DNA of 64,000 nt, taken from assembly GCF_028641065.1 (NCBI RefSeq), contig NC_073410.1, positions 6,882,001-6,946,000 on the forward strand. The letters run 5' to 3'. This DNA comes from Leucoraja erinacea. Taxonomy: Eukaryota. Under the pieces are notes generated by a model. The model saw nothing but the letters and a program-made list of their open reading frames with translations, ran no database searches and was not told where the DNA came from. Positions within the stretch are counted from its first letter, which is position 1. The number at the start of each line of letters is the position of its first letter. Position numbers and translations under genes: made by a program. This document shows positions 504 through 61,541 of this stretch, piece by piece.

Positions 504-2395
504 CCATTCTATAGTGAAAACCATTTTAGGCAAAATTTGGGTTCCCTGCTCTGCTATATGGCACCAAATCAAATTCCAATTGAAAAGTATGTTATGAGGC
601 AACCTAAGACTTTTTGCCTCTCCTAACAGTGGTTTCTAAATAGAAGTTCTTGTAGCTATTGGCATCTCTGCCTTTCTAAGTGGAGCAATGGTCAATGCTA
701 CTGTAGTTCTACTTGCACTGTTATTTATAGAGGTGCACCTGCAAATAGATGCAGCTACAGAAGGAGCTACCTATCTTTATAAAGGACTTTGTGAAGGAAA
801 TTGTCAGGTTCAAATCACTTGATAACTCCTTGTCTCCAGCTCAAAGCTGTAAAGGATGTACTTCCTCTCATTCTCACATCTCAGTGATGTGTATCTATTC
901 TACAATAGAGCATCCATTCAATATCAATACGAATGAATGATTGGAAAACCATTTCTCATCAAAGACACTGTGGGAGGTCAATGAAACACAAATGCTTTCA
1001 CAATTACAATCCTGGCAAATTGGACAAGAGTTTATATATTGAGCACAACTTTCTTCAACTCCAATAACTAATCAGTTGATTAATTAAACAAAACAGCGTG
1101 GAACCAGGCCCTTCAGCCCACTGAGTCCATTGATCACCTGTTCACATTATCTCAAAGTTATTCCACTACTCCCTACACACCAGGGACCTTTACAGAAGCC
1201 AATTAACTTACATAGGGTGTCAGGGGTTATAGGGAGAAGGAGTATGGAGTTGGGAGGGAAAGCTAGATCAGCCATGATTGAATGGTGGACTAGAAATGAT
1301 GGGCCAAATGGCCTACTTCTGCTCCTATCACTTTTTCTTTTAGTTTAGAGATACAGCACGAAGAGACTATCACAAAGAGAATAGTTAGAGTGAACGCACA
1401 GTGTGGTGGAGTGGAGGAAGAGAGGGCACACAGAAAGAGTTAATAGTAACCTGAGGGACATTGTTTTAACTCGACTGCCTGAAGAACGGTCCCAACCCGA
1501 ATTATCAGCTATCCATGTTCTCCAGAGATGCTGCCTGACCCACTGAGTTACTCCAACACTTTGTGTCATCTTCTTCATTCAGTCCACCGACCGATTAGCA
1601 CACGACGAAAGCTTTTCACTGTACATCGATACACGTAACAATGAACTAAACTGAACTGCGGTTGGCGGACACGTATGGAACGAGCTGCCAGAAGAGGTAG
1701 TTGAGGCAGGTATTACAGCTCAATTTACAGGTACAATGATGGGGAAGGTTTAGAGGGATATGGGCCAGATGGGAATGAGACTTGATGGGACATCCTGGTT
1801 GGCATGGATGCATTGAGCCAAAGGCTCTGTTTCTATGCAATATAACGACCCAACTCTAAAGTATTAGTGGTGGGATTTATCTACAACCAAGGAAGACTGT
1901 GTAATCAAACTAAGAAGCTGAAGAAAGCCAAGCTCAAATCACCTGAAATGGTCGCATAGCACGATCTTAGGCCAAAGATTCACAAATCTGATTGCAATCC
2001 AAACTAAAGTCTGCAATCTATACAAGAGGTTCAACGTTGAATGAAAAACAATGTGAAAAGCTTTCTGAAACTTTCCAAAGCCTTTACCATTCAGGCAGAA
2101 ACACCATTTCCTCAAGTCCGGGAGTAGAAAGCCAATTGATTGTTTAATTCAGATCTTGGTTGACTGACTCACTGTTTTGTGGATGAATAAGGTTTAGAGT
2201 CAGTGACAGTCACTTGGGAGGGATAGGGTGTTACGAGGTCAGGCCTCTACTTCTCAGAAACATTTTGTTAAAAGCACCCGAGGCTACACGAGTTCAAACA
2301 ATATTGATCAATAATGGTCTGGAAACCACTGGAGTAGCAGAATGCCTGACGTGAACAGAGAGCTTCGTCTCCTCACCCCAGCCTGCAACCTGCTG

Positions 2396-2703
2396 GGCGG
2401 CACGGTGGCAGAGCGGTAGAGTTGCTGCCTCACAGCGCTTTCAGTGCCAGAGTGCCGGGTTCGATCCTGACTATGGGTGCTGTCTGTACAGAGTTTGTGC
2501 GTTCTCCCTGTGACCTGCGTGGTTTTTATCTCCGAGATCTTCGGTTTCCTCCCACATTCCAAAGGCGTACGGGTTTGTAGGTTAATTGGCTTGGTCTAAA
2601 CGTTCACAGTGTGTGTAGGGTAGTGTTAGGGGATCGCTGGTCGATGCGGACTCGGTGGGCCGAAGGGCCTGTTTCCGCACTGTATCTCGAAACTAAACTA
2701 AAC
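2396..2703 (+). mobile_element. tRNA-derived V-SINE (HE1-like), full length
   Basis: gggcggcacggtggcagagcggtagag...gggttcgatcc head, V-domain, tail gggccgaagggcctgtttccgcactgtatctc(aaact)n. Further copies or fragments at about 3447-3742(-), 6859-7120(+), 9105-9390(+), 20874-21152(+), 29080-29397(-), 29922-30190(+), 41531-41816(-), 43061-43300(-), 43936-44258(+), 53118-53330(+). Confidence 0.9.
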
Positions 2704-2807
2704 CAACGCTGTACCACACTGCTTGCCCGTGTCGTGGCTCTAGGTGGGAAGGCACGGTGGCGCTGCAGTGGAGTTGCTACCTTACAGCACCAGAGACCCT
2801 GAATATG

Positions 2808-2995
2808 CAGCTGCTCCTCGGCCTACTATGGGGTTACGTTCCAATAAACCCATCGTATATCGGAAGTCGGAAACACATTTAATACAATGTGATCACGTGA
2901 CGGACGTGCGCTGTGGCTCGTTGTCGCTACCCAGCGTTAGCACCATCGTAAAGGTGAAATATCATGTCGAAGCATCGTAAATCGAGGAGCATCTG
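2808..2995. mobile_element. Tc1/mariner (Tigger/pogo-type) MITE
   Basis: Terminal inverted repeats CAGCTGCTCCTCG ... CGAGGAGCATCTG, TA on the right flank (TG on the left), subterminal catcgta repeats. The ends resemble mammalian MER47/Tigger5 from memory (not searched). Confidence 0.75.
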
Positions 2996-3983
2996 TAATA
3001 TGGAATGGATGCCTGACATATGATTTAACCATGAAGACCCTGAAGGGAAACAGTGAAATTGCACTGTTACATATCTTGTTGCAAGGGACCATTAACACTG
3101 AATTTCCATTTTGCATCTCTATATACCTCCATTCGCCCTTTACTTCACGTTACTGCTGTTTCACGTCCTGTTTCTTGGTCTCAGCCTTCCTGTCATGGCT
3201 AACGCATGTGTGGACTTTAGCTTTTAGAGATACAGTGCAGAAAGAGGCCCTTTGGCCCGCCGAGTCCATGCCGACCAGCGATCACCCTGTACACTAGCAC
3301 TAATAGAACAGCAAGAGGTAGAAGATGTCTCATTTTAGCATCTCATACACTGGGCCACATCTGCAGCATTCCTCCAATCCTGAGTGTAGTCACCCCTGAC
3401 CATGTGTTTGCCTTTCAGAGTAGTTACATCCTCTGTGTTCTGACTATGGAGATAGAGTGCAGAAATAGGCCCTTCGGCCCACCGACCAGCGATCCCCATA
3501 CACCCCCATACACTAGCACTATCCTACACACTAGGGACAATTTTACAATTTTAACAAAGCCAATTAATCTACAATCCTTTACATCTTTGGAATGTGGGAG
3601 GAAACCGGAGAACCTGGAGAAAACCCACGCGGTCACAGGGAGAACATACAAACTCCGTACAGACAGCGCCCAAAGTCAGGATCGAACCCCTGTCACTGGT
3701 GCAGAAAGACAGCAACTCTACCTCCGGGCCACCATGTCGCCCTTTAACTCCAGAGATATTTTTTGCAGAAACTCGGTTCCATTTGTAAAAGTTCTGCAAC
3801 ATATCTCTTTCTGAACGAGACACGGAAATGCCCAAACATAAAAAAACATTGATGAAAACACCCGGCAGCTCAGGTGGCATCAGTGGAGAGTTTGGGCCAA
3901 TCTTCACGCGTTATTAGAATTTTAAAACGCCATCAAAACCACAGTCACAGAAAGCAATTACAATGGTCAATTTACAAAATTTA

Positions 3984-4388
3984 GGAGATTGAGAGGGGAT
4001 CTTATAGAAACTTACAAAATTCTTAACGGGTTGGACAGGCTAGATGCAGGAAGATTGTTCCCGATGTTGGGGAAGTCCAGGACAAGGGGTCACAGCTTAA
4101 GGATAAAGGGGAAATCCTTTAAAACCGAGATGAGAAGAACGTTTTTCACACAGAGAGTGGTGAATCTCTGGAACTCTCTGCCACAGAGGGTAGTTGAGGC
4201 CAGTTCATTGGCTATATTTAAGAGGGAGTTAGATGTGGCCCTTGTGGCCAAGGGGATCAGAGGGTATGGAGAGAAGGCAGGTACGGGATACTGAGTTGAT
4301 GATCAGCCATGATCATATTGAATGGCGGTGCAGGCTCGAAGGGCCGAATGGCCTCCTCCTGCACCTAATTTCTATGTTTCTATGTTTC
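3984..4388 (+). mobile_element. CR1 LINE 3' fragment
   Basis: ORF 3989..4294 is the CR1 ORF2 C-terminus (RGDLIETYKIL...FFTQRVVNLWNSLP), followed by a 3' UTR and a (tttctatg)n tail. Confidence 0.92.
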
Positions 4389-5259
4389 TGTGGTCACATT
4401 ATTCTTGAGGGGCCTGGAACATTTTTCAAACTGTAAAACATCACGGACTACGCCACAATACAACTTTCTCGACACCAAGGGTCTCGACCCACAAGTGTCA
4501 CCTGTCCATGTTTTTCAGGCATGCTGCCTGACCTGCTGAGTTTGTGGCCTTTTTGTGTATGCACCAGCATCTGCAATTCCTTATTTCTACACGTTGCGAC
4601 TGGTCTGATATCGGGGATGTGTAAATAAATGCACAAATGCGCACAATCTCTCATGGGGGTGAATAAAACTTTTTCCCCAGTGGCGAGATTCTCTTCAAGA
4701 ATTACAGCACCTCTGCCATGAGCTGAGATACACGGTGCAATTTAGCAGCCACAAGTGACAGATTTAAGCAAGAACATTTTTTCGCTTAAAATCAGCTTTC
4801 TGAGCCACATGTTTTTTTTTTCTCTTCTCTGCTTCTTGACCCAGCTACGAAGGAAAACTGTCTAGACACCGTGGAATTGCACGATAGATCAAAGATGTGG
4901 TGCGTTGCCCAACCGTAACAGAGCGACCATGCAGAAACGAAATTGGTCGATAATATTCAGGACTTTGAAGAAGCACACTGAAGTGTATAGTCTGGAATTA
5001 AATTCCCTCCCAACATTTCTGCTGTGGAGAAGCAATCTCCCTCACAAACAGTTCACTTAATATATGGCGGGTCCAACCACAGTTTATTCTTTATGACCAT
5101 TGTCAGTGATGTTCATTCTTATCAGGGCCATTTCTATTCGGGCGATAAATTTGCACAAAATGCTTGTGCTGAAAACCAGTATTGAGTAATTCACAAGTCT
5201 CTGGGCGTGTATGTGACATGACAGCATCCAGCACCAAGTATTCGTACATGTTTTCATAA

Positions 5260-5914: not shown

Positions 5915-6082
5915 TACAATGACTAGACCGGCAGAAAATTATTTATTTTGCTCCCCTGACAGCGTGCACAGAGAACAAGGTGGGATGACAAAGAGATTAA
6001 AATGTTAATTTGAAATTCTCCCAATCCATCCACGTCCACCGCAGCAGAATCACAGAACTGCACAGCACAAACAAGGCAATGC

Positions 6083-7994: not shown

Positions 7995-8560
7995 AGTGCA
8001 GATTTGCATTTATATAGCACCTTGAGAACCTCAGGACATCCCCGAACACTTCACAACCAGTTATGTATTTTTCAGGATAGACACAAAATGCTGGAGTAAC
8101 TCAGCGGGACAGGCAGCATCTCTGGAGGTTAGGAATGGGTGACGTTTCGGGTCTGAAGAAGGGTCTCGACCCGAAACGTCACCTATTCCATCTCTCCAGA
8201 GGTTCTGCCTGTCCTGCTGAGTTACTCCAGCATCTTGTATCTATCTTCGGTTTATACCGGCATCTGCAGTTCCTTCCTACACAGGTGTAATACAGGATAT
8301 ATGGCAGTCTGTTTATGCACAGCAAGCTCCCATTATTAGCAATGTTATAATCATGAGATATTACACTTCTATGCTGTAAAGGCATGAATGTTGGCAGACA
8401 TCAAAGAAAGCTCTGCTCTTGTAAGGAATGATTAATGGGACCTTCAGATCAATGATCTCAACCACAGGTTAACACTGCAGGAGTTCTTTATCGTAGATCA
8501 TCAGGGTAATTTTTGTGCTCATTCTGGCGAAGGACACAAGCCAACAATTTATTTACTCTG
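7995..8560 (-). mobile_element. Old DeuSINE/SacSINE1-like relic interrupted by a Penelope-derived hairpin unit
   Basis: L2-type tail ttgcatttatatagcacctt...ctcaggacatccc...cttcacaacc resumes after 8285 (ggcagtctgtttatgcacagcaagctccc). Similar decayed copies at about 7205-7400, 10385-10720 and 22955-23150. Confidence 0.6.
8076..8283. mobile_element. Penelope-derived inverted (tail-to-tail) unit with hammerhead motif at 8153-8180(+)
   Basis: Left arm 8076-8152 is the reverse complement of the right arm. The centre reads CTGAAGA-A-GGGT-CTCG-ACCC-GAAA-CGTC. Similar inverted units at about 19750-19955, 25450-25615, 31838-32045, 56567-56760 and 59354-59705. Confidence 0.82.
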
Positions 8561-11500
8561 ACAACATTGAAGAAATATGTAGATTGGTGCATGGATAGGA
8601 TAGGTTTAGAGGGATATGGGCCAGGTGGGACTAGTGTAGATGGGGCTTATGATGCACAGGCTTGTAGGTTAATTGGCTGGGCATAATTGTAAATTGTCCC
8701 CAGTGTGTGTAGGATAGGTTAGTGTGCAGGGATCACAGGTCAGCGTTGATCCGATGGGCCGAAGGGCCTGTTCCCGCGCTGCATCTTGTAACTCCACACC
8801 CCAAGAAGCAGGACGTGTCTGCTCCTATGCATCAGCAGATGTGCAGAGTACAGAGGTTACACTGATCACGACGCCTGGATCTAAAACAATGTCATAGTTG
8901 CTAAAATTCATCCATTTATTAAATCTCTGGAACCAGAATAGTCTTCAAATTTTCTTCATATTCTGCACTCGAGTCTATATTTTGCTCAAGGTACAATGAG
9001 CAATTTCTATTCTTTCATTTGTTAAAATTGCAGTCATTCAAGTAGATGAATACTTATCATTGATCTGTCTACGATAAGAGACTGGGAGAAATCAAGAGGA
9101 GGGTGCACGCTGGTGAAGCAGTAGAGTTGCTGCCTTACAGCGCCAGAGGCCCAGTTTCGATCCTGGCTATGAGTGCTGTCTGTACGGAGTTTGCACGTTC
9201 TCCCCGTGTGTCTTCTCTGGTTTCCTCCCACACTCCACTGACGTGCAGGTTTGTAGGTTAATTCGCTTCTGTAGAAATTGTAAATTGTCTCTAATGTGTC
9301 GGATAGTGCTCGTGTACGGGGATCGCTGCTTGGCGCGGACGTGCTGGGCCAAAGGGCCTGACTCCGCTCTGGGTCTCTAAACTAATCTAAAGATTCATGG
9401 AACTGATCAGAGAATAGATGTTAGGCAGAATGTCCATCAAAATCTTATTCAACAGTAAAACAGGCAGAAATGGTGTTGGATTGATTCCCATTTCACATAT
9501 AAAAAGGACACAAAGTGCTGGAGTAACGCAGTGGGTCAGGCAGCATCCCGGGAGAACATGGATGGGCAACGTTTCAGGTTGGGACCCTTCTTCAGACCTT
9601 ACGTTTTTTGGAGTTTGTGATTACTACTTCCTTGACTTCCCTGTATCATACGTTCTGATTTGATCTTTTAATGGTTAACCTTTTATTGAAATATTTCCGG
9701 ACTTAACAGATTCCTCGAGACCTTTTTTCAAAGGCCATAATATATTGTGTGGCTGTAAAATTACCGATGCACACACATGCACTTTCAAAAAAGAAATTGA
9801 GTGAATTAATGAACTCCCGACACAAACAAGCTCCAAGATCCAATTACTCACTTAACGTAATCCTTCCCTGAGTTAACAAAGCACAAAAAAAACACAATAA
9901 GGGCTTTGATTGAAAAGTGCATTTAATTTCTGACTTGCGCTCAAGTGGGTCCATTACTATAATACAACAGTCATGTGGCTTTTTGTTACACAACTGTAAT
10001 GATTTGAACCAAACATAAAACTCAGGTCCCTGAGGGCAGGCTTTCTCTTCTTGTGAACGGAATGAAGTGAGATCTTGTGCGTTGGGATACCCAGAGCCAG
10101 CGGTAAACTAATTTGTCGCGTTTGGTATTACATGTGGAATTTTGATTCTCTGCTCCCGTCTCTCCAGGTAAGGATTAATATCCTCAGGAACTTTCCTCAG
10201 GGACCAAATTTCCAAATAGCTTTTATTTGCAGACTGGTAGTTTCAGAGAGAAGCGGCCACAATCAGTTGTTTAGCTAACCGTGGCCTTTTAACTGGCCAC
10301 CAAAAGGTCAAAGAGACAAATTAGCGTGTTGCGCGGCTTTGGAGCAATGACTGGAAACCCAAGCGGAGAGTAATTCCAGAGCATTTTTTCAGCATGTCCT
10401 GAATTGCTTTGCAGCCAATGACAGTTTTTGGAAGTGCAGTCGCAATGTCATGAAGGAAATTTGGCAGCTAATTTGCACGACGAGCCCAGTCAGATACGAT
10501 ATGTTGGAGGACAGATATGGTTTGCTATGGTTGGTGATGAATATTGGCCAGGCCATGGGATATCTCCCAGTTTTCTTTGTTGCAATAGTGTTAATGTAAT
10601 AATTTACAGTTAGCTGGAGCACCAGACTGGGCCTTGGCTTAATGTTCTATTTCTAAGGCAACATCTTTGACAGGGCGACACTCCTTTGATGACGCACTCA
10701 AATCCCTGTGTCAGTCTGAGTCATTTGTTCTTCCTCACCACTTGCTTCATGCCAAGTGTTGGCCTGGATACTTGAAATGATTTTTCTGGGAGCACATTTA
10801 AATCTGCCAACCTTCTGAACAAGTGACAAGGAACTAACCGCCATGAGTCAGATAACGCAATTCTTTCATTTAGACTCTCCTGAAGCTGACTGCAGTTTGA
10901 TGTTCCCCAGAATCTCTGTTATGTGGCGAACTCCCACCGACTGCATTTGGCAGGAGAGATCACTCTGCTTTCAGTAAACGTAGCTTCTCGTTTAAGTTGT
11001 TACAGATACGACTTGGTGCGACAACTGAAGACAATTCAGTCGCCGGTGCCTGTCGCCGGTTGACGTAGGTAGTCGCCAATGGAATTCACCAAAGTCAGCC
11101 TACGTCACCCAGCGACAACCTACAACAGCACCTACATCAGGAGAAGTCAAGCTACACCCACTGTTGCCAACATTTTTTGAATATGCTGAAAATCCAACGC
11201 TATGACTCTTTGGGCGACCGAGGAGACTACTCACGATAATACAGGCGACACCTCGGTGACCATGTGGCAACAGCCCAGTCGCTTGTAGTCAACTAAAAAA
11301 TAGCCTAAGTGGGACTGGTATTTTATGTTCCAGAGAAAGCAACATGAAAGAATTCACTTTGCAAGCTAATGTTGCTCAGAGCTGTAATTGAAAATCTCTC
11401 CGAGCTCTTGACACAGCCACCAGGCTTCATGAGAAGGGACCACTTCCATTTCACAATAACCAGTTTACACAATGTTCCCAATTGTGACAGTTACATTACT

Positions 11501-11648: not shown

Positions 11649-11727
11649 CCGAAACGATGGTGTAACCAATTCCCCGAGGCCGTCCGCGGTCTTGATCCAG
11701 CGCCGTAATAACTCGCACGGTCTTACC
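11649..11727 (-). CDS. CDH23: Cadherin-23 coding exon (equivalent to human c.754-832; EC3)
   Basis: Inside ORF 11512..11748(-). Acceptor ...gttttccag|GGT, donor TCG G|gtaaga; 79 nt. GKTVRVITALDQDRGRPRGIGYTIVS-G matches human GTTVRIITAIDQDKGRPRGIGYTIVSG. I did not find the next exon in 1-11648 or the previous exon in 60237-64000. Confidence 0.96.
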
Positions 11728-14931: not shown

Positions 14932-15349
14932 AGTGATCATTTTCTTATGACCATGGAGACCATTCGGTCCATCAATTCCATGCTGTCCTTGATTTATTTC
15001 ATAAGTACCCCAGTGTAGCATAAAGGGATCACAATAGGTGCTACAGAAATGCAGGACTTTCCGGGGTACTGGGAACGGGTTTGCTATCTGCGTTACTGCA
15101 TTGCCGCTTGTCTGCATTACCTCAACTTCCCGTGAATGGGAAACGAGAGCTCTCCCACAATTTCACACCAGAGTTTTAATGGAAGCTCCGTCGAGTTGGC
15201 AGAGTCAGGGAACAACAGGCTTCCACTGTGAAGTACAGGGCAGTCTAACCCAGGCACCAAACCTCAGGGAAAATGCCCGGAGCTGTCAAGGCAAGCTTCT
15301 CCTCCAACCTCATCTACTGCATCCGTTGTTCAGGATGTGGACTCTTATA

Positions 15350-15443
15350 TCTGAAGAAGGGTTTCGGCCCGAAAAGTTGCCTATTTCCTTCGCTCCATAG
15401 ATGCTGCTGCACCCGCTGAGTTTCTCCAGCATTTTTGTGTACC
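15350..15443 (+). mobile_element. 94-bp Penelope-derived hammerhead unit with 14-bp TSD
   Basis: Starts tCTGAAGAagggtttcggcccGAAA; flanked by tgtggactcttata at 15336-15349 and 15444-15457. Confidence 0.88.
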
Positions 15444-15841
15444 TGTGGACTCTTATACATTGGGCGAGACCAAACGTAGACTGTGCGATTGTTGCGCTCA
15501 ACACCTTCGCTCAGTCCGCCTGAACCTACCTGATCTCCTGGTTACTGAACACTTTAATTCTCCTTCCCATTCCCACACTGACCTTTCTGTCCTAGGTCTC
15601 CTCCATTGTCAGAGTGAGGCTAAACGCAAATTGGAGGAACAGCATCTCATATTTCGCTTGGGCAGCTTACAGCCCAGTGGTATTAACATTGATTTCTCTA
15701 ACTTCCCTCTCTCTCCATCCCTCCCCCAGCCAAGATGCACCAGCTTCTCGCTTTCACCCAACAGCTAACAATGGCCAGTTTCCTTCATCATCGTTACTTT
15801 TTTGCACATCTTTCATTCATTGTTCTTTATCTCTCTATATC

Positions 15842-16262: not shown

Positions 16263-17419
16263 AACCAAGGTATAAACCTGACTATCATCGTCTATATCTC
16301 TCGTTTCCCTTATCCTGAACTAGTCCGAAGAAGGGCCTCGACCCATTCCTTCTCTCCAGAGATGCTGCCTGTCCGACTGAATTACTCCAGCTTTTTGTGT
16401 CCTTCCGTTGAAATGCAATAGCTGTCGGGGGGGTAGTGCTGGTTAAAATCCACTCTGCTGCTCTGTGTACTGGAATTCCATGCGCTACCAACAGAACTGA
16501 CCCTGGTAATCAACATTCATTTAAGTGTTCCACCACACTGCGCATAAAGTGCCCAAACCAATTTAGACCCGACCACCAGAAGCGTTCGTTATTTTTATGG
16601 TGTCACGGATTAATTTCTCCCCTCATCCTGACTTTTAACAGAAAGAAAGGGCGAAATATTGCGTAAATGTCGTCCGTTCATGCGGAAAATGCTGAACAAA
16701 ACAATCAGTTTAATTGTCGAACCAAAAGATGACGGGACCTGTACAGACAGCAAATTGTTCTGAAATGACGGGGGTCGCGACACTTCTTCCACTGGCCTCC
16801 TGGTATCGTTCTGCTTTGAAAGGCAGTGAAGTGTTTTTGCTTTCAAATTATGATTTAACAATTCAAAACAAGACGCAAGTACTTGGGGCAGATGAAGTCC
16901 GAGTGGGGCTTAAAATAAAAATATGTTGGTGTTTCTGGGAAAGATCTTCTTCACTCCGACAAAGTTATTTGATTTACACAGTGAACATTTAAGATTCCCG
17001 TCTCTCAAGTCCCATCACATCAGCTGGAATAACTCAGCGGGACAGGCAGCATCTCTGGAGACCCTTCTTCAGACTCTGTGTGTGAGATCGAGCTTCCTAG
17101 TCAGCTGGTTTTTGGTTCAGTTTGAAGAAGGGTCTCGACCCGAAACGTCACCCATTCCTTCTCTCCAGCGAAGCTGCCTGTCCCACACAGTGGCACAGCG
17201 GGAGAGCTACTGCCTTACACCACCAGAGACCCGGGTTCGATCCTGACTCCGGGTGCTGTTTGTACGGAATTTGTACGTTTTCCCCGTGACCTGCGTGGGT
17301 TTTTTCTCCGAGATCTTCGGTTTCCTCCCACACTCCAAAGACGTACAGATTGGTAGGATAACTGGCTGGGTATGAATGTAAAATTGTCCCTAGTGTGTGT
17401 GGTGGTGGTGATAATGTGC

Positions 17420-23347: not shown

Positions 23348-23634
23348 CACCCCAGCGGTATGAACATTGAATTCTCCAGTTTCAGGTAATCCTTGCTTTC
23401 AAGCTTGGGTAGTTTACACCCCAGCGGTACGAACATTGGATTTCTCCCTCCTTCCCCTCCCCTTCCCAGCTCTCCAACAGCCTTCTGTCTCCGCCTCTTC
23501 CTTTCTTCTTTCCGCCCTCCACCCCGCACCCCCCACGTCAGTCTGAAGAAGGGTCTCGACCCGAAACGTCACCTATTCCTTCGCTCCATAGATGCTGCCT
23601 CACCCGCTGAGTTTCTCCAGCATTTTTGTCTACC
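23348..23634 (+). mobile_element. Penelope-like 3' fragment (duplicated GIY-YIG end plus hammerhead at 23543-23570)
   Basis: caccccagcggtatgaacattga (HPSGMNIE) occurs twice, followed by a pyrimidine-rich UTR and CTGAAGAAGGGTCTCGACCCGAAACGTC. Confidence 0.8.
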
Positions 23635-23740: not shown

Positions 23741-23834
23741 GGTAGACACAAAATGCTGGAGGAACTCAGCGGGACGGGCAGCATCTCTGGAGAGAAGGGA
23801 TGGGTGATGTTTCGGGTCCAGACCCTTCTTCAGA
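23741..23834 (-). mobile_element. 94-bp Penelope-derived hammerhead unit with 14-bp TSD, inserted in a CR1 tail
   Basis: Flanked by cttacagcatggaa (23727-23740 / 23835-23848); the minus strand begins TCTGAAGAAGGG. Confidence 0.88.
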
Positions 23835-25892: not shown

Positions 25893-26021
25893 AGGTGGGG
25901 AGTTTTCATGTATGTTTGTGCTGTAAGGAAGGTTGTTGAAAATGGGGTCCATATCCTGGATATCTGTGATAGTGATCGCCAGGTTAGCCAACGTGGAGAG
26001 TGGGTGGTCTTTATCCTGGTC
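25893..26021 (-). CDS. CDH23: Cadherin-23 coding exon (equivalent to human/mouse c.625-753; EC2-EC3 linker)
   Basis: Acceptor ...ctttgtttcag|GAC, donor CCT|gtgagt; 129 nt. DQDKDHPLSTLANLAITITDIQDMDPIFNNLPYSTNIHENSPP carries the CDH23-typical DxQDMDP linker and is in frame with the flanking exons. Confidence 0.96.
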
Positions 26022-31246: not shown

Positions 31247-31441
31247 CGTTGCATTGACTTGTAGCTGGTAGGCTCGAGTGGTCTCATAATCCAGGGGTCT
31301 TTGGACAGTCACCACTCCCCTGGCACCGTCAATGGTGAAGAAGCGTGATGGAGGCTGGAAGGAATACAGCACACTGCCCCCGGTTCCCTGATCGCGGTCC
31401 GTGGCATTCACTATGAATATCGGTGTCCCTGTCGGTGTGTT
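31247..31441 (-). CDS. CDH23: Cadherin-23 coding exon (equivalent to human c.430-624; core of EC2)
   Basis: Inside ORF 31241..31447(-). Acceptor ...tcttccttgcag|AAC, donor ACG|gtatga; 195 nt. NTPTGTPIFIVNATDRDQGTGGSVLYSFQPPSRFFTIDGARGVVTVQRPLDYETTRAYQLQVNAT has the DxD and LDYE cadherin motifs and closely matches CDH23 EC2. Confidence 0.97.
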
Positions 31442-31838: not shown

Positions 31839-32743
31839 CACAAAATGCTGGAGTAACTGTGCGGGACAGGCAGCATCGCTGGGGAGAAGGAATGGGTCAA
31901 GATTCTTCTTCAGACTGAAGAAGGGTCTCGACCCGAAACGTCACTCATTCCTTCTCTCCAGAGTTGCTGCCTGTCCCGCAGAGTTACTCCAGCATTTCCC
32001 GTCTATCTTCGGTTTCAACCAGCATCTGCAGTTCCTTCCTACACATGTACTCAAAAGTGCGCAGATGTTGGAAAACTGAAATAAAACACAACCAATATGT
32101 CAGGCAGCATCCGCCAAGAGTGAAATTTAATATTTCATGTCGAACAACTTTGATTCATTCCTCAACTGGAACTAAAAACTGCTTCTCTCCTCACACATGC
32201 TGCTTGCCTTTCAATGCCATTGCAGAGTTGCCAGATTTCACATCACCTTACTTCTGTTGGTAAAATTACAGAAAAAGATTCAAAAGATAAAATTAATTAA
32301 CTCAGCAAATTGTCACATACAACAAACAAAAAAAAAAATCACATAACGACCACTTTTCGAGCTGAAAACTGCCCAAGATTTTTTTTTTTTGCACCATAAT
32401 TTCCTGGAGAGGTGTCTCAGATAATTGTCCATTTTCTTGCGTGTTTGAGGTAAGGTTCGTATTATAAGTTGCTAAGTTCTAGCGGATCAAGGGCATTCAG
32501 CCAATACCCAATGATAGTTCCAGTAATGAGTTGTAGGAGCAGTTATAGGCAGAGATGCTGCCTTACAATGCTAGGGCCCCGGGTTCGATCCTGACCACAG
32601 TTGCTATCTGTAACATGGTTTGTGCGTTCTCCCCGTGACCTGTGTATGTTTTCTCTGGAAACTCCGTCCTCCCACACTCCAAAGACGTACAGGTTTGTAG
32701 GTTAATTGGCTTGGTATCAATGTAAATCGTCACTAGTGTGTGT

Positions 32744-40279: not shown

Positions 40280-40323
40280 TAACTCAGCGGGTGAGGCAGC
40301 ATCTCTGGAGTGAAGGAATGGGC

Positions 40324-40351
40324 GACGTTTCGGGTCGAGACCCTTCTTCAG
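40324..40351 (-). ncRNA. Minimal hammerhead ribozyme motif, sense to the CDH23 pre-mRNA (activity untested)
   Basis: Minus strand reads CUGAAGA-A-GGGU-CUCG-ACCC-GAAA-CGUC: conserved core boxes, 4-bp stem II, palindromic ACGU stem III and GUC triplet. Stem I is weak. Confidence 0.6.
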
Positions 40352-43579: not shown

Positions 43580-45070
43580 GACAGATTTGTCAACATAGTA
43601 CTCAATAATAGATAAAATAATAAACAGAAATAAAAGTTCAATACATAAAAACGGCAATAGAGTGCAAAAACATAAAGCCCAATGTCCTTACTGCAACCAA
43701 GGGAGTTTATAGTTTGGACTTTAGATGGAGTTAGTGTATGTTGGATAAATGAGAACCAACTAATGTCTTGGTTATACACAGAAAGGTACAAAACATTCAG
43801 AGACTACCTGAATCTCTACACTTGAACCATGATTTCGAAGTGATATCACAATCAACAAACCCAATCAGCTGCAAAAATCTAACTGCTGGAGGAGCTCTTT
43901 GTGTCAGGCAGCATCTTTGGAGAGAAATGAGCCTGGAGGTACAGTAACGCAGAGGCTGGAGCTGCTGCCTCACAGCACCAGAGATCCCGACTCCACCCTG
44001 ACCTCAGGTGCTGTATGTGTGGAGTTTGCACGATCTCCCTGGGACCACGTAGGTCTCCTCTTGGTACTCGGTCTCATCCCACATCCTAAAGACGTGCGGG
44101 GTTGTTGGCCTCTGTAAAGTGGCCTCTGTAAATCGTCTCTCATGCGCAGTGAGTGGATGAGAAAGTGGAATGACATGGAACTAGTGATCGATGGTTGGCG
44201 TGGACTCAGTGGGTTGAAGGCCCCGTTTCCATGCTGTATCTCCAAAACTAAAACTAAATGAAAAAGGATATTGATTTTTTTTCATCTTGATCTCCCATTG
44301 CACCTCAGCGTCAGAGAATATGGTCTCACTTTTTGACCTGTGGTCAACTGTGACTCCAAGTCACTTGGGCTGAATCACAACTCCAAATTGTGCTTCTTAC
44401 AGTCTCTGACTTTGTTCACACATCTTTTCTCTTCCCTATTAAACAACTGATTTAACCCCAACATAACAAACTGAACATAGCCGTCTGAGGAAGGGTCTCG
44501 ACCCGAAACGTTGCCCATCGCTTCTCTCCAGAGATGTTGCCTGTCCCGCTGAGTTACTCCAGCATTTTGTGTCTCTGACAAGCCCAACCCCACGCTCCCC
44601 ACCACCCTTCCACTCCGTCCATCCACCCTCCCACGCTCACTCACAAAGCATAACACAAGGTTCCTGTCACCATCACTGACTCCACACACAATCCGACATC
44701 TACATCATTCATTTCCTCATAGACTTCCTCAAGGTTTTGTAGCTTTATTGGGATTAGATCAATATTCAGACGCATTTTCACTCCACAATTTACATCTACC
44801 CAGAGTCTTACAGCGTGGAAACAGGCCCTTCTGCCCAACATGTCCATGCTTGACCAACATGTCCCACCTATACTAGTCCCACCTGCCTGCATTTGGCCCA
44901 TATCTCTCTAAACCTATCCCATCCATGTACATGTCTAAATGTTTCTCAAATGTTGTGATAGTTCCTGCCTCCTCTACCTCCTCCGGCAGCTCGTTCCGTA
45001 TACCTACCACCCTTTGTGTAAAAAAATTTTGCCCCTCGGCTTCCGATTAAATCTTTTCCCAATCACCTTA

Positions 45071-45694: not shown

Positions 45695-47394
45695 TACGTG
45701 TAAAACCTCTTCTTCAGATCCCCTCGAAACCTTGACCCATTTTCTTACACCCATGCCACTGAGCTTGAGATGTATCTCTCTGTTGGGAAGAAACAACTAT
45801 CTCTCCATCTCCCCCTACCCCCCTCAGCCTCCACTCGTCCAAAGAAACCAGGATCAGTCTATCTTGTCTCACCTTATAACTGAGCTACTCCAGCCCAGGC
45901 AACATTATTTTAAGCTTCGTCCACTAAACCTTGCAGTCTTTGAATCATTTTATTTTCTCACCTGCCCTCCAAATCGTTGTCAGGTCGGAAATTAGCCCTG
46001 TTATATTTTTTAGTCGGCATTTAGGTTGTAGCAATGGTTCATTACTGTAGGGATCCACCTTTAATGCTTCAGCTCGCGATTCATAGAGGGAGACCATCTT
46101 TCTCACAGCTTATTACGCTTTCAAAATCTCACAAAACTCACTGGCAAAAGCTACAGCATTCAGGTAATCAGTTTAATCCATCACAATTTCAAACCCGCAC
46201 TGGTTTGAAAACAAAAAAACACAAATGAATTTTTATTTCACCAAAGGAAAATGCTTTTTGAAATGTGTCCTCTGGGTCAGCTTAAAATATATTTGAAAAG
46301 AGGCAAACATCTGGAAGCAACAAAATATTGCCACCTACGGATTAGGTATTACTCATTGGGAAATTGTTAACATGTTAACATCGAGACATGCACTTCATTT
46401 TAAGCAATAGAATGTGTTAAATGCAAATCAAATGATGAACAATCAGGGTGAAATAACCCAGCAAAGTGCTGGAATAACTCAGTGGGTCAGGCGGCGTCTG
46501 TGGAGGGAATGGGTTGACAGTATTTTCGGATCGGGACAGTGCTCTGATAAACAATATGGGGGGTGTTTTCTCATGTGTTCTGTGTAGGTGGCCGGTGCAG
46601 ACAAATTTAGTGTTTCCCCCATCATGGAAATAAGCCTTTCTGCTCACGCGATCCATCCAGTAACTATTTACCCCAAATTCTCTTTTTTCCCCAACGCATT
46701 CCAAGGGGAACCACAAATGGGATACTTTGTGTTAAAATGGAATACTATGTAACCTTGTCAGCGCCCTTTATCTAGTGACTCTTTGCATACCTTGAGTTTG
46801 CAATGCAAAGAATCTTCACCACGACTTGCCGCATATGACAAAAAAGTATCTTTCATTCATTCACTCACTCAGCTCCCCCCAGATGCTTCCACTCATCTGC
46901 ACACTTGGGGCAATCTATTATGGCCAACTAACCGACCAACTCTGAAGCCTTTGGGACGTGGGAGGAGACGGCAGCAGTCGGAGGAAACTCACTGAACGTG
47001 GTTGCAGAGAGAACATGCAAACTCCGCAAAAGACAGCAGCCAAGATCAGGACTGAACCGAGGTAACAGCAGCAGTGAGGCATGACTGTGCTGCCATCTGT
47101 ATGCAATCATGTCTGCCGCTGTTAAGCAAAGCTCCGTAGAAGATTTATTAGAGACAACAAAATGCTGATGCCCATTCACCAAACAAAGAAAACAAACTGT
47201 TTAAGAAGGAACTGCAGATGCTGGAAAATCGAAGGTACACAAAAAAGCTGGAGAAACTCAGCGGGTGCAACAGCATCTATGGAGCGAAGGAAAAAGGCAA
47301 CGTTTCGGGCCAAAACCCTTCTTCAGACAACAAAGAGGTGGAGTAACGCAGCGGGTCAGGCAGTGCCTCTGTAAAACATGGATAGGTGACGCTT

Positions 47395-48098
47395 CATAGA
47401 AACATAGAAAATAGGTGCAGGAGTTGGCCATTCAGCCCTTTGAGCCAGCACTGCCATTCAATATGATCATGGCTGATCATCTAAAATCAGTACCCTGTTC
47501 CTGCTTTTTCCCATATCCCTTGATTCTTTTAACACTAAGAGCTAAATCTCTCTTGAAAACATCCAGTGAATTGGCCTCCACTGCCTTCTGTGGCAGAGAA
47601 TTCCACAGATTCACAACTCTCTGGGTGAAGAAGTTTTCCTCACCTCAGTCCTAAATGGCCTACCCCTTATTCTTAAACTGCGACCCCTTGTTTTGGACTC
47701 CCCCAACATCGGGAACATTTTCCTGCATCTAGCCTGTCCAATCATTTTATGTTTCTGTAAGATCCCCCTCATATCCTTCCAAATTCCAGTGAATACAAGC
47801 CCAGTCCACCCATTCTTTCATATGTCAGTCCCGTCATCCCAGGAATTAACCTGGTGAATTTACGTTGCACTCCCTCAATGGCAATAATGTCCTTCCACAA
47901 ATTAGGTGACCAAAATTGCATACAGTACTGCAGGTACACAAAATTTCTGGAGAAACTCAGCGGGTGCAGCAGCATCTATGGAGCGAAGGAAATAGGTGAC
48001 ATTTCGGGCCGAAACCCTTCTTCAGACTGATGACTGCAGGTGCAGTTTCACCAGGGTCCCGTACAACTGCAGTAGGACTACCTTGCTCCTAAACTCCA
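47395..48098 (-). mobile_element. CR1 3' fragment interrupted by a hammerhead unit (47936-48032, TSD actgcaggt)
   Basis: YCMQFWSP...IEGVQRKFTRLIPGM remnant; direct repeat actgcaggt at 47927-47935 / 48033-48041. Confidence 0.86.
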
Positions 48099-55939: not shown

Positions 55940-56090
55940 TCGGTGACGTTTTGGGTCGAGACCCTTCTTCAGACTGGTTCAGGACGAGGGAAACGAGAGA
56001 TATGGATGATGATGTAGAGAGATAGAGTACAATGAATAAAGGATAGGCAAAATAAGTAACGATGATGAAGGAAACGAGCCATTGTTAGCC
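55940..56090 (-). mobile_element. Penelope 3' UTR plus hammerhead-like repeat (reverse copy of the 15760-16345 UTR)
   Basis: Reverse complement matches gctaacaatggc..tttccttcatcatcgttact...atctctcgtttccct...agtctgaagaagggtctcgaccc without the CR1 interruption. Confidence 0.82.
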
Positions 56091-58098: not shown

Positions 58099-60143
58099 AG
58101 TTTGGCAAAACAGAACAGTCTTAAAGAGAAACTTTGAGGCGAGGCAAGTAGAGTGGTAATGACAGTTTAGCAGTAAACCCAGGGGCTTTGGATTATAGGA
58201 ACAGCTCTAACCAGGAACACATAATATCAACCAGAATTGGAGCAGCGCAGAGGTGACAAGTCAGGTGCTTAGGAAGACAGAGAGGGGCCAAGTCATAAAG
58301 TGACACACACACAATGGTTTTCAAATACACAGTTATAAAATAAACGATCCTATATCTGTTCTCTATAGAAACACATCTGCTCTCAGGACCCTGGGGAAAT
58401 GTTGGCATTCGCCATGTTGTGCTGTGAATTTCTAAAAGGCACGAAACAAAAATATTCCAGGAACAACCATCACACTTTCCAGGTGCCCCTGAATAGTAGG
58501 TCATAGATTCATTGTCTCATAGACTCATAGACCCATAGAGTCATAAGCGTGGAAATAGGCCCTTCTGCCCAAATAGGCCCTTCTGCCCAACCCTCTCAAC
58601 CTATCCTATTCATGTCCCTGTCTTCTTAAATGTTGTGATAGTACCTACCTCAACTACCTCCTCCAGCAGCGCGTTCTATATGTTGCCCCTCAGATTCATC
58701 TTAAATCTTTCCTCCCCCCCCCGCCTCACCTTAAACCCATTAACAATGACAAAGATGGGATTAGTATAGAATTCATTTGTAGCATAAACATGGCAGCCAT
58801 TTCTCACTTAGTAAACGCCGGTATTGAGTAGAACAACAATCTCACCCAAAATACTCAGTAGGTCAGGCAACATTTTGTAAAGGGAGAAAAACATTGCAAT
58901 TAAAATGAAACCCTCGTCAGAAGTCGCACACCAAGGAATTGAGTGAATTGGAGATTGAGGAGGAGTGGAGAGAACCGAGTGAGTATCCGTGAGAAGATGA
59001 AATGAAAGGTTGTCCAAGGAACACATGCTTTTCAAGTCCAGTTAATACTTGAATGAGGAAAATTAGTGAAAGAATAACTCCAATCATTTCACTTAATTTT
59101 GTTGGTGCAAACAGTGACTCGGAATCATTTCACTTGGTTTTCCTCAGTGAACGATGGATGAAGTATACGAAAAACATTCTGCAAATAACACCATGGTGTC
59201 TTCAATTAATTCTGAAACATTAGTTCATCTCAGCTATAAAAAACAGCGACCTCATTATTGTTGTACAATCTCAACATCGCATTTGGAATGTCAACCTAAG
59301 TTAGTCAGTGGTGCATGAATCCGGAGTGTTTGGACTTGGAGCCAAGATGCTCTAGACACAAAAAGCTGGAGTAACTCAGCGGGACAGCCACCATCACTGG
59401 AGAGAAGGGAATGTGTCTGAAGAAGGGTTTCGGCCCGAAACGTTGCCTATTTCCTTCGCTCCATAGATGCTGCTGCACCCGCTGAGTTTCTCCAGCATTT
59501 TTGTCTACCTACACTGGACGGAAGGAATGGGTGATGTCTCGGGTCGAGACCCTTCTTCAGGCTCAAAGTTCTTCAGACTACTTCAGTCTCGACGTAAAAA
59601 GTCACCCATTCCTTCTCTCCAGAGATGCAGCCTGTCCCGCTGAGTTACTCCAGCACTTTGTGGCTATCTTCAATTTAAATCAGCATCTGTAGTTCCTTCC
59701 TGCACAAGTTCCACCATTCTGTTGCACTGGCCTCATAAAATGAAGAAAGACAATAGACAATAGACAATGGGTGCAGGAGTAGGCCATTCTGCCCTTCGAG
59801 CCAGCACCGCCATTCAACGTGATCATGGCCGATCATCCCCAATCAGTAGCCCGTTCCTGCCTTCTCCCCATATCCCCTGACTCCGCTATTTTTAAGAGCC
59901 CTATCTAGCTCTCTCTTGAAAGCTACCAGAGAACCTGCCTCCACCGCCCTCTGAGGCAGAGAATTCCACAGACTCACCACTCTCTGCCTAAACCTAAAAT
60001 AAACACAATTGTCGAGGTAGCGCAATCCACAAGTGGTTGTCATGGAGAGAAATTCGATGACCTTGCAGAGAGCAGGTAAATTAACATTAACTGGGCAATA
60101 ATTGGGTTTAATACAAGGCTCCCCATCCGGGATTGTCACTGAC

Positions 60144-60236
60144 CTCAGGGATTCTCACGCTGTAGGGCTGGTTGTGGAACACGGGTGGATTGTCGTTCAC
60201 GTCGCCCACTTGAATATTGACAATGCCTTTAATCAC
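60144..60236 (-). CDS. CDH23: Cadherin-23 coding exon (equivalent to human c.337-429; end of EC1 / EC1-EC2 linker)
   Basis: Minus strand reads ...tttgcag|GTG ATT AAA...ATC CCT GAG|gtcagt; 93 nt, phase 0/0. Translation VIKGIVNIQVGDVNDNPPVFHNQPYSVRIPE matches CDH23 (human VITRKVNIQVGDVNDNAPTFHNQPYSVRIPE) and contains the DxNDN calcium motif. Too short for the ORF track. Confidence 0.96.
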
Positions 60237-60279
60237 CTGCAAATTAAAAGTCAAGAAGGGTTTCAGAAGTTGTACTGCA

Positions 60280-60749
60280 CTTTAGTTTAATTTAACTTAG
60301 AGATGCAGCGCGGAAACAGGCCCTTCGGCCCACCGGGTCCGTGCCGACCAGCGATCCCCGCACATTAACACCATCCTACACCCACTAGGGACAATTTTTA
60401 CATTTACCAATCCAATTAACCTACAAACCCATACGTCATTGGATTGTGGGAGGGGGGTGGAAGATTGCAACCTTCACGTGGTCCGCCCTGTTTCGACTAA
60501 TGCAATCAACTCGACGTGCACAAACAGAAGATCAAATAGAACAAGTTGTCCAATAACGTTAGGCTGTGCACGCCACACGAAAGAAGAAGAAGTGGAGGAA
60601 ACCGGAGATCTCGGAGAAAACCCACGGAGGTCACGGGGAGAACGTATAAACTCCGTACAGACAAGCGCCCGTAGTTGGGATCGAACCGGGTCTCCGGCGC
60701 TGCATTCGGTGTAAGGCAGCAACTCTACCGCTGCACCACCGTGCCGCCC
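60280..60749 (-). mobile_element. V-SINE about 45 bp upstream of a CDH23 acceptor, interrupted by a ~140-bp (AAG)n-tailed retroposon (about 60453-60592, +)
   Basis: SINE broken at gtgggagg; the insert ends aagaagaagaag followed by gtggagg (imperfect TSD). Second copy of the insert at about 63414-64000. Confidence 0.82.
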
Positions 60750-60798
60750 TTGGTTGTAAATTAATCAAATTCTCAACAGAATGGATCCCTCCACCTGA

Positions 60799-60889
60799 CT
60801 GAAGAAGGGTCTCGACCCGAAATGTCGCCTATTTCTTTCGCTGCATAGATGCTGCCTCACCCACTGAGTTTCTCCAGCACTTTTGTCTA
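60799..60889 (+). mobile_element. ~90-bp hammerhead unit with 15-bp flanking direct repeat
   Basis: ccctccacctgactg at 60787-60801 and 60890-60904 (the left copy overlaps the CTG of the core). Confidence 0.85.
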
Positions 60890-61269
60890 CCCTCCACCTG
60901 ACTGCTAGTTTGGCGTTCATTAGGCTTCTCTACCCCAATGCAGGAGAGGACAGAGCTCCCAACTAATCATTATGCATTATGCTAAATGTGAAATAGCTTG
61001 ATTAATTCATGCAGATCACTGACTGTGCTACCAGTTATGGGCTTGTATAGTTAATCAGTACAACTAACCAAAATCAAAATTGTATTTTTAGAACTGAAGC
61101 AATGCATGTACACTGCAGTGTTTAAATATGCATCCAACAGAACCTTAGCAAAGTCAACTTTTAGTTCCTTTTTATTCATAACTTTAGAGTAAAAGGATCT
61201 GGGAACAGCTGCAGTGGAGAGGAGATAGTTCCCCGCCTCTTCTCCGAATCTGGATTTGTAAAGAGGGTC

Positions 61270-61475
61270 TAGAGGAGGATGCAAGGGCCCTTGTCACGGT
61301 TCATCCCTAGGAGTTGTGCGACTGTCGACTCTTCCATCTACGGCTGTTCCCAGGGACACGCATGGTGACAGACATCATGCTGCTACAAGGCCAACAACTC
61401 AGTGGAAGACGTTCGTTGGTCTGTCCAAAACGTGTTGATCTCCCAGCGCAGTGAGATGTGCGTTAGGGAATATTG
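61270..61475 (+). mobile_element. Decayed Tx1/L1-clade ORF2 C-terminal relic
   Basis: Frameshifted LSRFIP...YGLFPGTH..TDI...NSVED..WSVQNVLISQRSEM pattern. A weaker similar relic lies at about 41850-41995(-). Confidence 0.5.
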
Positions 61476-61541
61476 AAGGGTCTCGATCCGAAACGTCACC
61501 TATCCACATTCTCCAGAGATGCTGCCTGACCCGTTGAGTAA

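Follow-up and report, generated by a model that had tools for sequence, protein, structure and literature searches.

The window, a stretch of 64,000 nucleotides of the Leucoraja erinacea genome (contig NC_073410.1, positions 6,882,001 to 6,946,000 of the forward strand), contains coding exons of CDH23 and many copies of a short repeat with a hammerhead-ribozyme-like motif (Table 1). The sequence-only reading had put CDH23 on the minus strand, and matches to Cadherin-23 in the PDB agree: for the exon 31247-31441 the best single-domain matches are Cadherin-23 residues 119-184. The sense copies at 40324, 47299 and 47998 do lie in a single CDH23 intron, namely 31442-60143 (28.7 kb), which carries 15 sense and 8 antisense copies in all.

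Table 1. CDH23 exons and Penelope-like repeat copies in the window (CDH23 lies on the minus strand).
Feature	Position	Strand	Basis
Head-to-head pair: truncated minus copy and intact plus hammerhead (core 8153-8180, antisense to CDH23)	8078..8236	.	single long hairpin fold
Sense-strand hammerhead fitting the strict descriptor; G-U pair in stem II, stem I of 3 bp	9568..9595	-	
CDH23 coding exon (GKTVRVITALDQD...IVS)	11649..11727	-	
5'-truncated Penelope-like GIY-YIG fragment (SSNLIYCIRCSGCGLLY...HLIFRLGSLQPSGINIDFSNF); frame broken by nested insertion and frameshift	15300..15706	+	sequence
Solo unit of hammerhead and short tail (UUCG subfamily) inside the GIY-YIG fragment; palindrome disrupted	15350..15443	+	
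Hammerhead and tail belonging to the 15300 element; dead, a 13-nt deletion takes out GAAACGUC	16325..16396	+	
Last ORF codons, then pyrimidine-rich UTR and YYAGU, followed by an intact hammerhead at 23543-23570 and a short tail	23351..23634	+	
Solo sense unit, 14-bp target duplication, palindrome broken (ACAU)	23741..23833	-	
CDH23 coding exon (DQDKDHP...NSPP)	25893..26021	-	
CDH23 coding exon (NTPTGTP...VNAT), next after 60144..60236	31247..31441	-	Pfam Cadherin 1e-15; borders
Head-to-head pair; intact plus hammerhead 31915-31942 with long tail	31841..31998	.	
Sense copy, exact core; 5' truncation leaves stem I of 1 bp	40280..40351	-	
Antisense intact copy in intron 31442-60143, complementary to the sense copies there	44485..44568	+	
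Sense copy of the UUCG subfamily with loop UUUG; stem I of 2 bp, core and ACGU preserved	47234..47326	-	
Solo sense unit, helix III AUGU (CpG transition), 9-nt target duplication	47933..48025	-	
Four clustered copies, nested or inverted, one with an intact antisense hammerhead (59417-59444)	59355..59663	.	
CDH23 coding exon (VIKGIVNIQVGDVNDNPP...IPE)	60144..60236	-	AG/GT borders and translation
Solo unit, 15-bp target duplication overlapping CUG, helix III AUGU	60799..60891	+	

More than 20 such motifs on both strands had been reported; a profile search gave 43 family copies, 22 on the plus and 21 on the minus strand. The 28-mer described as intact is indeed exact at all four places (8153, 23543 and 31915 on the plus strand, 40324-40351 on the minus strand), and 28 sites match it with up to six substitutions. 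There is a copy at each of the 15 positions that had been named, 55946 being corrected to 55945-55972. The catalytic core (CUGANGA...GAAA...UH in type I topology) is kept in 13 of the 43 window copies and in 153 of 746 sampled genomic copies, and core, 4-bp stem II and ACGU palindrome are all kept in 8 of the 43. Seven of the 15 named copies (8153, 23543, 31915, 40324, 44485, 47299 and 59417) fit a strict descriptor of core, 4-bp stem II, ACGU and NUH; the eighth strict copy of the window, 9568, was absent from the earlier list. A core base is lost at 17122 (C3), 34503 (U16.1) and 55945 (G12), and the palindrome at 15351, 18743, 23806, 47998 and 60799. An Rfam scan of the window yielded no family reaching its gathering score, as would be expected for a motif without helix III.

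Genome-wide we counted 111,152 copies with core, ACGU and NUH (55,488 forward, 55,664 reverse) against 45 in the control, and 76 of 100 sampled copies also keep the 4-bp stem II. The motifs of the window are therefore not specific to CDH23. Markov-resampled windows contain on average 0.05 core matches and no strict match (20 resamples), and the genome controls gave 0 and 45; a chance origin of the motifs is excluded. The genome mean predicts 3.2 core-and-ACGU copies for the window, which has eight (p 0.018), whereas the surrounding 864 kb predict 6.4; the density being close to the latter, the window is typical of its chromosome region. A strand bias inside introns had been proposed as a check, and none was found in the CDH23 span of 408 kb (6,541,384-6,949,205), which may include a nested gene on the opposite strand: there are 158 sense and 149 antisense copies, and 18 and 19 strictly intact ones, a small sample with a confidence interval of 0.32-0.66 for the sense fraction. 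Copies number 75 per 100 kb in the span vs 74 outside.

The motifs represent minimal type I hammerheads, carried in the pseudo-LTR (pLTR) of a Penelope-like element with reverse transcriptase (RT) and GIY-YIG endonuclease. The assignment to Penelope made by the sequence-only reading holds, as the consensuses match the published minimal hammerhead (min-HHR) and a same-strand hammerhead-tail unit follows the GIY-YIG end, at a distance of 75-290 nt in 55 genomic copies. The order in long copies is RT, Zn-linker, GIY-YIG, a pyrimidine-rich UTR of 110-200 nt, YYAGU, hammerhead and tail, the tail stopping about 65 or about 105 nt beyond the cut site, that is at two ends about 40 nt apart. Copy L108 is a full partial tandem whose next ORF starts 170 nt after C3, with the tail running on into the ORF start; L108 and L048 both show a pLTR partial tandem, an inverted 5'-truncated copy and an optional tail of 30-40 bp. 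RT and C-terminal GIY-YIG share a single ORF, with frames of up to 797 aa, and Pfam finds both at the cut-off in L108 and L008 (RVT_1 30.1 bits, GIY-YIG 22.6 bits), three other copies staying below it. The Zn-finger-like linker between RT and endonuclease (CNRKKCNTC or CNRRRCNTC) fits the CX2-5CxxC of the Neptune clade, a motif common to Neptune and Nematis in the accessible text of Craig et al. (2021; PMC8557442), and from its motifs rather than from a tree the element appears to be of the Neptune/Nematis type.

All subfamily consensuses with a complete motif have an extra base between A9 and G10.1, the pair G10.1-C11.1 and a loop-less palindromic 15.1-16.1. Stem I of the ORF-linked copies comprises 2 bp followed by a mismatch, short of the 4-5 bp of helix I in min-HHRs. 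This lowers the predicted activity, not the membership, because a D. virilis variant also has 2 bp (PMC4209133, as far as accessible).

Within the window the motif had been said to follow the GIY-YIG ORF and UTR in two places. This is correct for 23351-23634, but the copy at 15351 is nested inside the GIY-YIG frame, which it interrupts at the YIG motif, and is flanked by a 14-bp target duplication (15336-15349 and 15444-15457). The GIY-YIG piece itself (79-87% identity to the best 149 other genomic matches) has no Pfam match; it was identified via genomic relatives that match Pfam GIY-YIG. A donor-like site lies at the stop codon of 13,711 genomic copies, and YAG precedes the hammerhead motif. 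For a possible spliced intron in the UTR, there is against these 13,711 sites a single match to the spliced-junction pattern, which is an unspliced copy; among the 15 of 50 RNA joints listed from polyA reads of a relative there is no intron-type skip. A metagenome pattern scan for copies in other species gave 12 matches, none with the stem or tail of the repeat, and these were taken as chance.

The catalytic G12 decays like any CpG and the copies appear to decay like neutral DNA: G12 is changed in 14 of 109 subfamily A and 93 of 321 subfamily B copies, and other CpG sites are changed in 4-21% (A) and 18-24% (B). A lack of excess conservation or covariation of core over flank had been named, together with a lack of cleavage, as refuting the ribozyme. 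Excess conservation was seen at non-CpG positions, where the 3' core varies less than A/T positions of the tail in subfamily A (0.7% vs 3.3%, p 0.0015) and, at the border of significance, in B (6.2% vs 7.8%, p 0.053). The test is limited to the 3' core; choosing copies aligned to the motif start biases a whole-core comparison, and the difference in B shrinks under this limit. Covariation was not found: there are no compensatory stem changes within this genome, and 1 of 16 pair tests gave p <0.05, uncorrected. In stem II, the U-A to U-G exchange described for a second subfamily keeps the pairing as claimed, but it is one-sided and not compensatory. Because no covariation was found, the hammerhead fold rests on core motif and position.

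Many copies are short units. Of 376 copies, 264 lack the UTR and begin no more than 8 nt from the 5' edge of the ribozyme, and no peak of starts is present at the cut site (1, 5 and 2 starts at model positions 27-29 among 746 copies). The units measure about 95 or about 130 nt and have duplications of 9-18 bp or form head-to-head pairs, the inverted partners being called by profile-based pairing. Clean target duplications at fixed ends were seen in 18 copies, after two of 20 direct repeats had been dropped as tail sequence of a neighbouring copy. Solo and ORF-linked copies have identical subfamily sequences. Head-to-tail units each with a hammerhead were not seen, and in the tandems L007, L046 and L014 the repeated unit has no complete core. 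A cap-derived extra G was looked for at 5' junctions: before GU, G makes up 19 of 29 non-master bases (p 7e-5), at least five being remnants of inverted or duplicated copies; before AGU the figure is 12 of 22, which is not significant.

The solo units may be run-off cDNAs from uncut RNA. More tentatively, the 95- and 130-nt units could be complete run-off cDNAs similar to retroviral strong-stop DNA, with RT starting at a site inside the tail, close to where the element's own transcript has its 5' end, and reaching the first base of the RNA at the initiator-like YYAGUCU before the core, a sequence that presumably fits the initiator consensus. If so, hundreds of thousands of insertions would show, by the 5' ends of the units, where transcription of a vertebrate Neptune-type element begins, and hammerhead cleavage in the downstream pLTR would provide the RNA with a terminal repeat of 31 nt that could serve in strand transfer.

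Taken together, we consider it very probable that the motifs stem from the pLTR of a highly abundant Penelope-like retrotransposon, that they represent its minimal type I hammerheads, and that the short insertions it left in introns of CDH23 are likely inert passengers. By analogy with the Anolis element, RT would start in uncut RNA at either tail end and copy back across the cut site. Most cDNAs would stop at the ribozyme's 5' edge and be inserted as short units or head-to-head pairs. Selection would maintain the core in the masters that transpose, in which both a dimer and the protein of the element are likely required for cleavage, and inserted copies would decay neutrally and leave the host pre-mRNA unprocessed.

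The sequence-only reading had proposed instead that sense copies of the 28.7-kb intron could dimerise through ACGU and cut CDH23 pre-mRNA, and it had doubted monomer activity. The doubt is supported by ViennaRNA folding energies, which ignore hammerhead tertiary contacts and proteins: of 12 copies folded with their surrounding sequence, 11 have a predicted stem I pairing probability of <0.001. Cutting by dimers, which would affect the processing of the pre-mRNA, is in our view highly improbable, even though three sense copies fit the strict descriptor (9568, 40324 and 47299) and sense copies outnumber antisense ones in this intron. According to the accessible text, published min-HHRs show no cleavage as monomers and low but real cleavage as dimers (PMC4209133), and the hammerhead of the Anolis element PAc cuts only when protein is present, by which it can be switched on (PMC11167929). 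However, 47998 has AUGU in place of the palindrome, stem I of 40324 is 1 bp and the three copies 40324, 47299 and 47998 are 0.7-7.7 kb apart. Active dimers of 40324, 47299 and 47998 are predicted at -1.9 to -4.9 kcal/mol, 7.6-11.7 kcal/mol above two folded monomers, and each of the three could pair with an antisense copy of the same intron in competing duplexes of a predicted -113 to -178 kcal/mol. Sense copies are not depleted over the 408 kb, the family is genome-wide, and going by the genome count tens of thousands of similar copies must sit in other introns. Cutting of CDH23 pre-mRNA is unlikely. Read ends did not pile up in one polyA RNA run of a related species, about 6% of it read; polyA RNA misses 5'-OH and cyclic-phosphate ends and nascent introns.

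The short units might also be a non-autonomous SINE- or retrozyme-like family with its own transcript, mobilised in trans by Penelope protein. The many copies without UTR, the 18 target duplications with fixed ends and a hammerhead-tail read depth 10-20 times that of the ORF in the relative's polyA run would suit such a family, and retrozymes have been proposed to derive from pLTRs (bioRxiv 2026.07.22.740005, accessible part). Yet solo and ORF-linked copies have their subfamily sequences in common, the copies are dispersed monomers or head-to-head pairs and not head-to-tail hammerhead arrays, the units span the cut site instead of running from cut site to cut site, and the reads are near equal on both strands, like passengers in host transcripts; we regard this reading as improbable. 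Somewhat less improbable, though still unlikely, is that the ribozyme is vestigial even in the masters and its core is kept for another job, e.g., as promoter elements or as a binding site of the RT protein. YYAGUCU is compatible with what we take to be the initiator consensus, and ORF-linked copies have a stem I of just 2 bp. In the accessible parts of the publications, PAc insertion in vitro was unimpaired by hammerhead mutants (PMC11167929) and Naiads spread without hammerheads (PMC8557442). A vestigial ribozyme is at odds with the catalytic positions, the extra base after A9, G10.1-C11.1 and ACGU, which match the published min-HHR consensus (PMC4209133) in every complete-motif subfamily consensus, and with both inter-subfamily stem changes (U-A to U-G), which preserve pairing.

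The hammerhead class has been known since 2014 from the min-HHRs of the metazoan Penelope-like elements Xena, Poseidon, Neptune and Cercyon (Cervera and De la Pena 2014, PMC4209133), and the skate family is a further member. Going by the accessible part of that paper, the skate motif has the same CUGANGA with one extra base, G10.1-C11.1 stem II, GAAA-CG-UH and palindromic 15.1-16.1 without loop 3; it likewise sits in the pLTR, mostly as dispersed single copies from truncated elements with some opposite-strand pairs. Its stems II and I are 4 and 2 bp vs 7-8 and 4-5 bp in Schistosoma families, and about 111,000 copies compare with about 4,000 in coelacanth and about 9,000 in Xenopus, counted with different descriptors. 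Around 50 core-intact hammerheads per Mb would be far above the published vertebrate counts compared. In the part of the literature covered, with Repbase and Dfam outside the search, we found no description of these hammerheads from cartilaginous fish.

Poseidon PAc of Anolis carolinensis (Frangieh et al. 2024, PMC11167929), as described in the accessible text, resembles the skate element in its tandem pLTR, in having the hammerhead where pLTR and ORF join, in two 3' ends that lie some tens of nt from each other within AC-rich sequence, and in insertions templated across the uncut hammerhead. In the skate element, by contrast, about 170 nt separate C3 from the ORF start, and the tail does not code for protein. 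The CX4CxxC linker preceding the skate endonuclease is not a feature of Penelope/Poseidon in the accessible part of PMC8557442; endonuclease-positive Neptune elements described there have in common with the skate element a C-terminal GIY-YIG with CxxC...H...H, a Zn-finger-like linker (CNRKKCNTC in the skate), a DKG motif and partial tandems with an inverted 5'-truncated copy and optional 30-40-bp tail, as in L048 and L108. With animal non-LTR retrozymes (Cervera and De la Pena 2020, PMC7229834; Li et al., bioRxiv 2026.07.22.740005; both in their accessible parts) the family has in common the type I hammerhead, pLTR ancestry and very high copy number, the axolotl having 126,247 hammerhead motifs. 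Unlike these head-to-tail arrays with one hammerhead per unit, the skate units occur scattered or in head-to-head orientation, and they run across the cut site.

For CDH23 the copies are of little importance and represent ordinary repeat load. The family as a whole amounts to an extensive natural collection of Penelope insertion products, whose sharp 5' edge at the ribozyme and lack of cut-site ends bear on the role of the hammerhead in Penelope transposition, and the near-intact partial tandem L108 offers a test substrate.

The exact 28-nt hammerhead-like motif lies, as the sequence-only reading had it, at 8153, 23543 and 31915 on the plus strand and at 40324-40351 on the minus strand, and 28 sites in the window are within six substitutions of it. 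A profile built from these sites finds 43 copies (22 plus, 21 minus). The core is intact in 13 by a structural descriptor, and 8 combine the core with a 4-bp stem II and the ACGU palindrome (strict descriptor), against 0.05 and 0 per window expected by chance from 20 Markov resamples. Seven of the 15 copies named in that reading pass the strict test and eight fail. An Rfam search of the window left the motif unmatched.

At loci picked for long frames the motif stands on the same strand shortly past the stop codon of a frame encoding reverse transcriptase, a CX4CxxC linker and GIY-YIG; 55 copies have this order, with Pfam support for the domains. One long truncated copy (L048) is joined to an inverted 3′ end, another locus (L108) is a partial tandem running from ORF end through UTR, hammerhead and tail into the next ORF start, and tails stop at two points about 40 nt apart. 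Linker, inverted truncated copy, partial tandem and two tail ends all agree with EN+ Penelope-like elements, including the Neptune/Nematis linker, as described in the accessible parts of PMC8557442 and PMC3846280. With the published minimal type I hammerhead consensus (PMC4209133, in part) the motif has in common an extra base after A9, G10.1-C11.1 and a palindromic 15.1-16.1. The repeat is a real, new cartilaginous-fish member of the class described in 2014. The assignment to cartilaginous fish we presume from the types of repeat present; within a partial coverage of the literature no earlier account from this group was found.

The frame at 15454-15708 encodes the final part of a GIY-YIG domain, for which a first look gives 97,435 candidates genome-wide. 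That the motif follows GIY-YIG in the window holds at 23351-23634 and fails at 15351, where a unit flanked by a 14-bp duplication is inserted into a GIY-YIG fragment; the hammerhead of the interrupted element itself, at 16325, is deleted. The UTR of this Penelope fragment (15300-16396) is split by a LINE 3′ end, presumably CR1-like as are the others of its family. The non-LTR fragments in the table we take to be Rex1/Babar-like, and the L027 locus elsewhere in the genome a DIRS-type element. At a tandem junction in another locus (L114:245-1328) the endonuclease end directly joins the next ORF leader, and UTR, hammerhead and tail are absent.

Positions of inverted pairs and other repeats (window coordinates unless a locus is named)
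Feature	Position (strand)	Basis or remark
Head-to-head inverted pairs	8078-8236, 17021-17191, 19790-19933, 25496-25617, 31841-31998, 56568-56759, 59355-59663	Joined at or near ribozyme 5′ edge
Non-LTR reverse transcriptase frame fragments	53822-54754 (+), 50535-50936 (-), 32896-33372 (-)	Pfam RVT_1 and ALKBH8_N matches for 310-aa frame
3′ ends of another LINE family	~15824-16270 (-), 3926-4294, 17362-17826, 21345-21743	Presumably CR1-like
Low-complexity tandem repeat	38084-38681	Long open frames on minus strand
Reverse transcriptase/RNase H frame, then tyrosine-recombinase-like frame	L027:7476-9901 (-)	

Across the genome the unchanged 28-mer occurs 15,042 times and the UUCG form 22,358 times. 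The pattern of core, ACGU and NUH matches 111,152 times versus 45 for a reversed control, and 76 of 100 sampled matches keep the 4-bp stem II. Available portions of the literature give about 4,000 minimal hammerheads in coelacanth and 9,000 in Xenopus (PMC4209133) and, for the axolotl, whose genome is far larger, 126,247 type I motifs (PMC7229834), counts made with descriptors unlike ours. A sample chosen blind to the repeat (1,064,000 bases: 864 kb around the window and 100 kb from each of two other contigs) holds 746 copies.

CDH23 on the minus strand was correctly named as host gene: the exon at 31247-31441 matches Cadherin-23 residues 119-184 of solved structures, and four exons in the window have clean borders. 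Placed by cadherin exons, the gene spans at least 6,541,384-6,949,205 of the contig. Within it, a stretch of about 66 kb (G000:C34:6,579,395-6,645,102) yielded no cadherin exon; a mammalian CDH23 intron holds a nested gene on the opposite strand. The sense copies at 40324, 47299 and 47998 do share a single 28.7-kb intron, which holds 15 sense and 8 antisense copies. The proposal that they pair through ACGU and cut the pre-mRNA is not borne out. Over the span sense and antisense copies number 158 versus 149, core-intact ones 39 versus 29, strict ones 18 versus 19 and strict ones with a 2-bp stem I 11 versus 13, so there is no strand bias. Active dimers of the three are predicted to be 7.6-11.7 kcal/mol less stable than the monomer folds, and competing duplexes with antisense copies of the same intron reach a predicted -113 to -178 kcal/mol. 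In 11 of 12 copies folded in context stem I is essentially unpaired, the exception (59417) being antisense. Copy density per 100 kb is 75 within the span and 74 outside. The mild intronic depletion reported for Xenopus retrozymes (bioRxiv 2026.07.22.740005, in part) is not seen here. We find no sign of a role of the hammerhead copies in CDH23.

G12, within a CpG, is altered in 14/109 and 93/321 copies of the two subfamilies, at a rate equal to or above that of other CpG sites, and the palindrome CpG decays likewise. Non-CpG variation is 0.7% in the core versus 3.3% in the tail for subfamily A (p 0.0015), and 6.2% versus 7.8% for B (p 0.053), which may reflect selection on masters (the transposing ORF-linked elements) followed by neutral decay. 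Stem changes between the subfamilies are one-sided, and no compensatory base pair stands out. In the roughly 6% of reads inspected from polyA RNA of a related organism (run X24), depth is about 2,500 per strand over hammerhead and tail and falls below 70 beyond the tail; read ends pile up nowhere, a weak test with this library type. The parts of the published work available to us report neither monomer cleavage nor more than poor dimer cleavage for minimal hammerheads (PMC4209133), and eight of nine Xenopus retrozyme dimers uncut (bioRxiv 2026.07.22.740005). As far as PMC11167929 is accessible, the Anolis hammerhead needs its own protein to cleave, mutants of it remain able to insert, and RNA-seq shows no reads that stop at the cut site. 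Folding predicts for several copies that GAAGAAGGG, on the core strand of all subfamilies, pairs with CCYAUUYCCUUC at the start of the tail, possibly a built-in off state.

Model positions 1-3 are reached by 403 of the 746 sampled copies, with no start peak at the cut site. Among 376 copies that reach the motif start with enough flank, 264 share at most 8 nt with any ORF-linked UTR, 32 share at least 30 nt, and 108 have a head-to-head partner. A missing UTR subfamily does not explain this, because just 2 of 131 have upstream sequence in common with another copy. Direct repeats of at least 11 nt surround 20 of 224 copies, versus 1.2 for shuffled pairs; two were tail sequence and were dropped. 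In all 18 that remain, the 5′ end falls at -12 to +3 of C3 in a search extending out to -80, and the 3′ end coincides with either tail end. Master bases before C3 (n = 131) are kept in 99 at -1, 90 at -2, 70 at -3 and 48 at -4, reaching background by -6, and loose polyA read ends of the relative gather at the same edge. Copies bounded by this edge and the lack of cut-site ends indicate that uncut RNA served as template for the short copies, copying usually halting at the ribozyme's 5′ edge.

Our leading guess is that run-off at a transcription start explains this edge. Nearly all ORF-linked copies carry there a pyrimidine tract and YYAGUCU, which from its sequence would fit the initiator consensus and a 3′ splice site alike. 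The 5′ edge coincides with the intron end of D. virilis Penelope (PMC4209133), whose start lies 46 nt before the intron (PMC2377424), according to the available parts of both papers; no spliced copy was found among genome copies. A folded or protein-bound ribozyme may instead have arrested copying, and ends that scatter across about 8 nt speak against a single sharp start.

The inverted pairs, often joined in the window through a TCAG-T-CTGA palindrome, would fold pre-mRNA into long hairpins, which are possible targets of RNA editing. Behind one full copy (L007:958-1328, on G000:C36) stand five head-to-tail 58-nt tail units, each with its first base immediately past the hammerhead cut site; this single case may go back to template jumps off cut RNA or to duplication by microhomology. 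Arrays of 62-66-nt units starting at GAAACGUC, half of the core, occur at L046:131-690 and 5081-5599 and at L014:3240-3611; they have inverted junctions and form a satellite-like derivative on two contigs.
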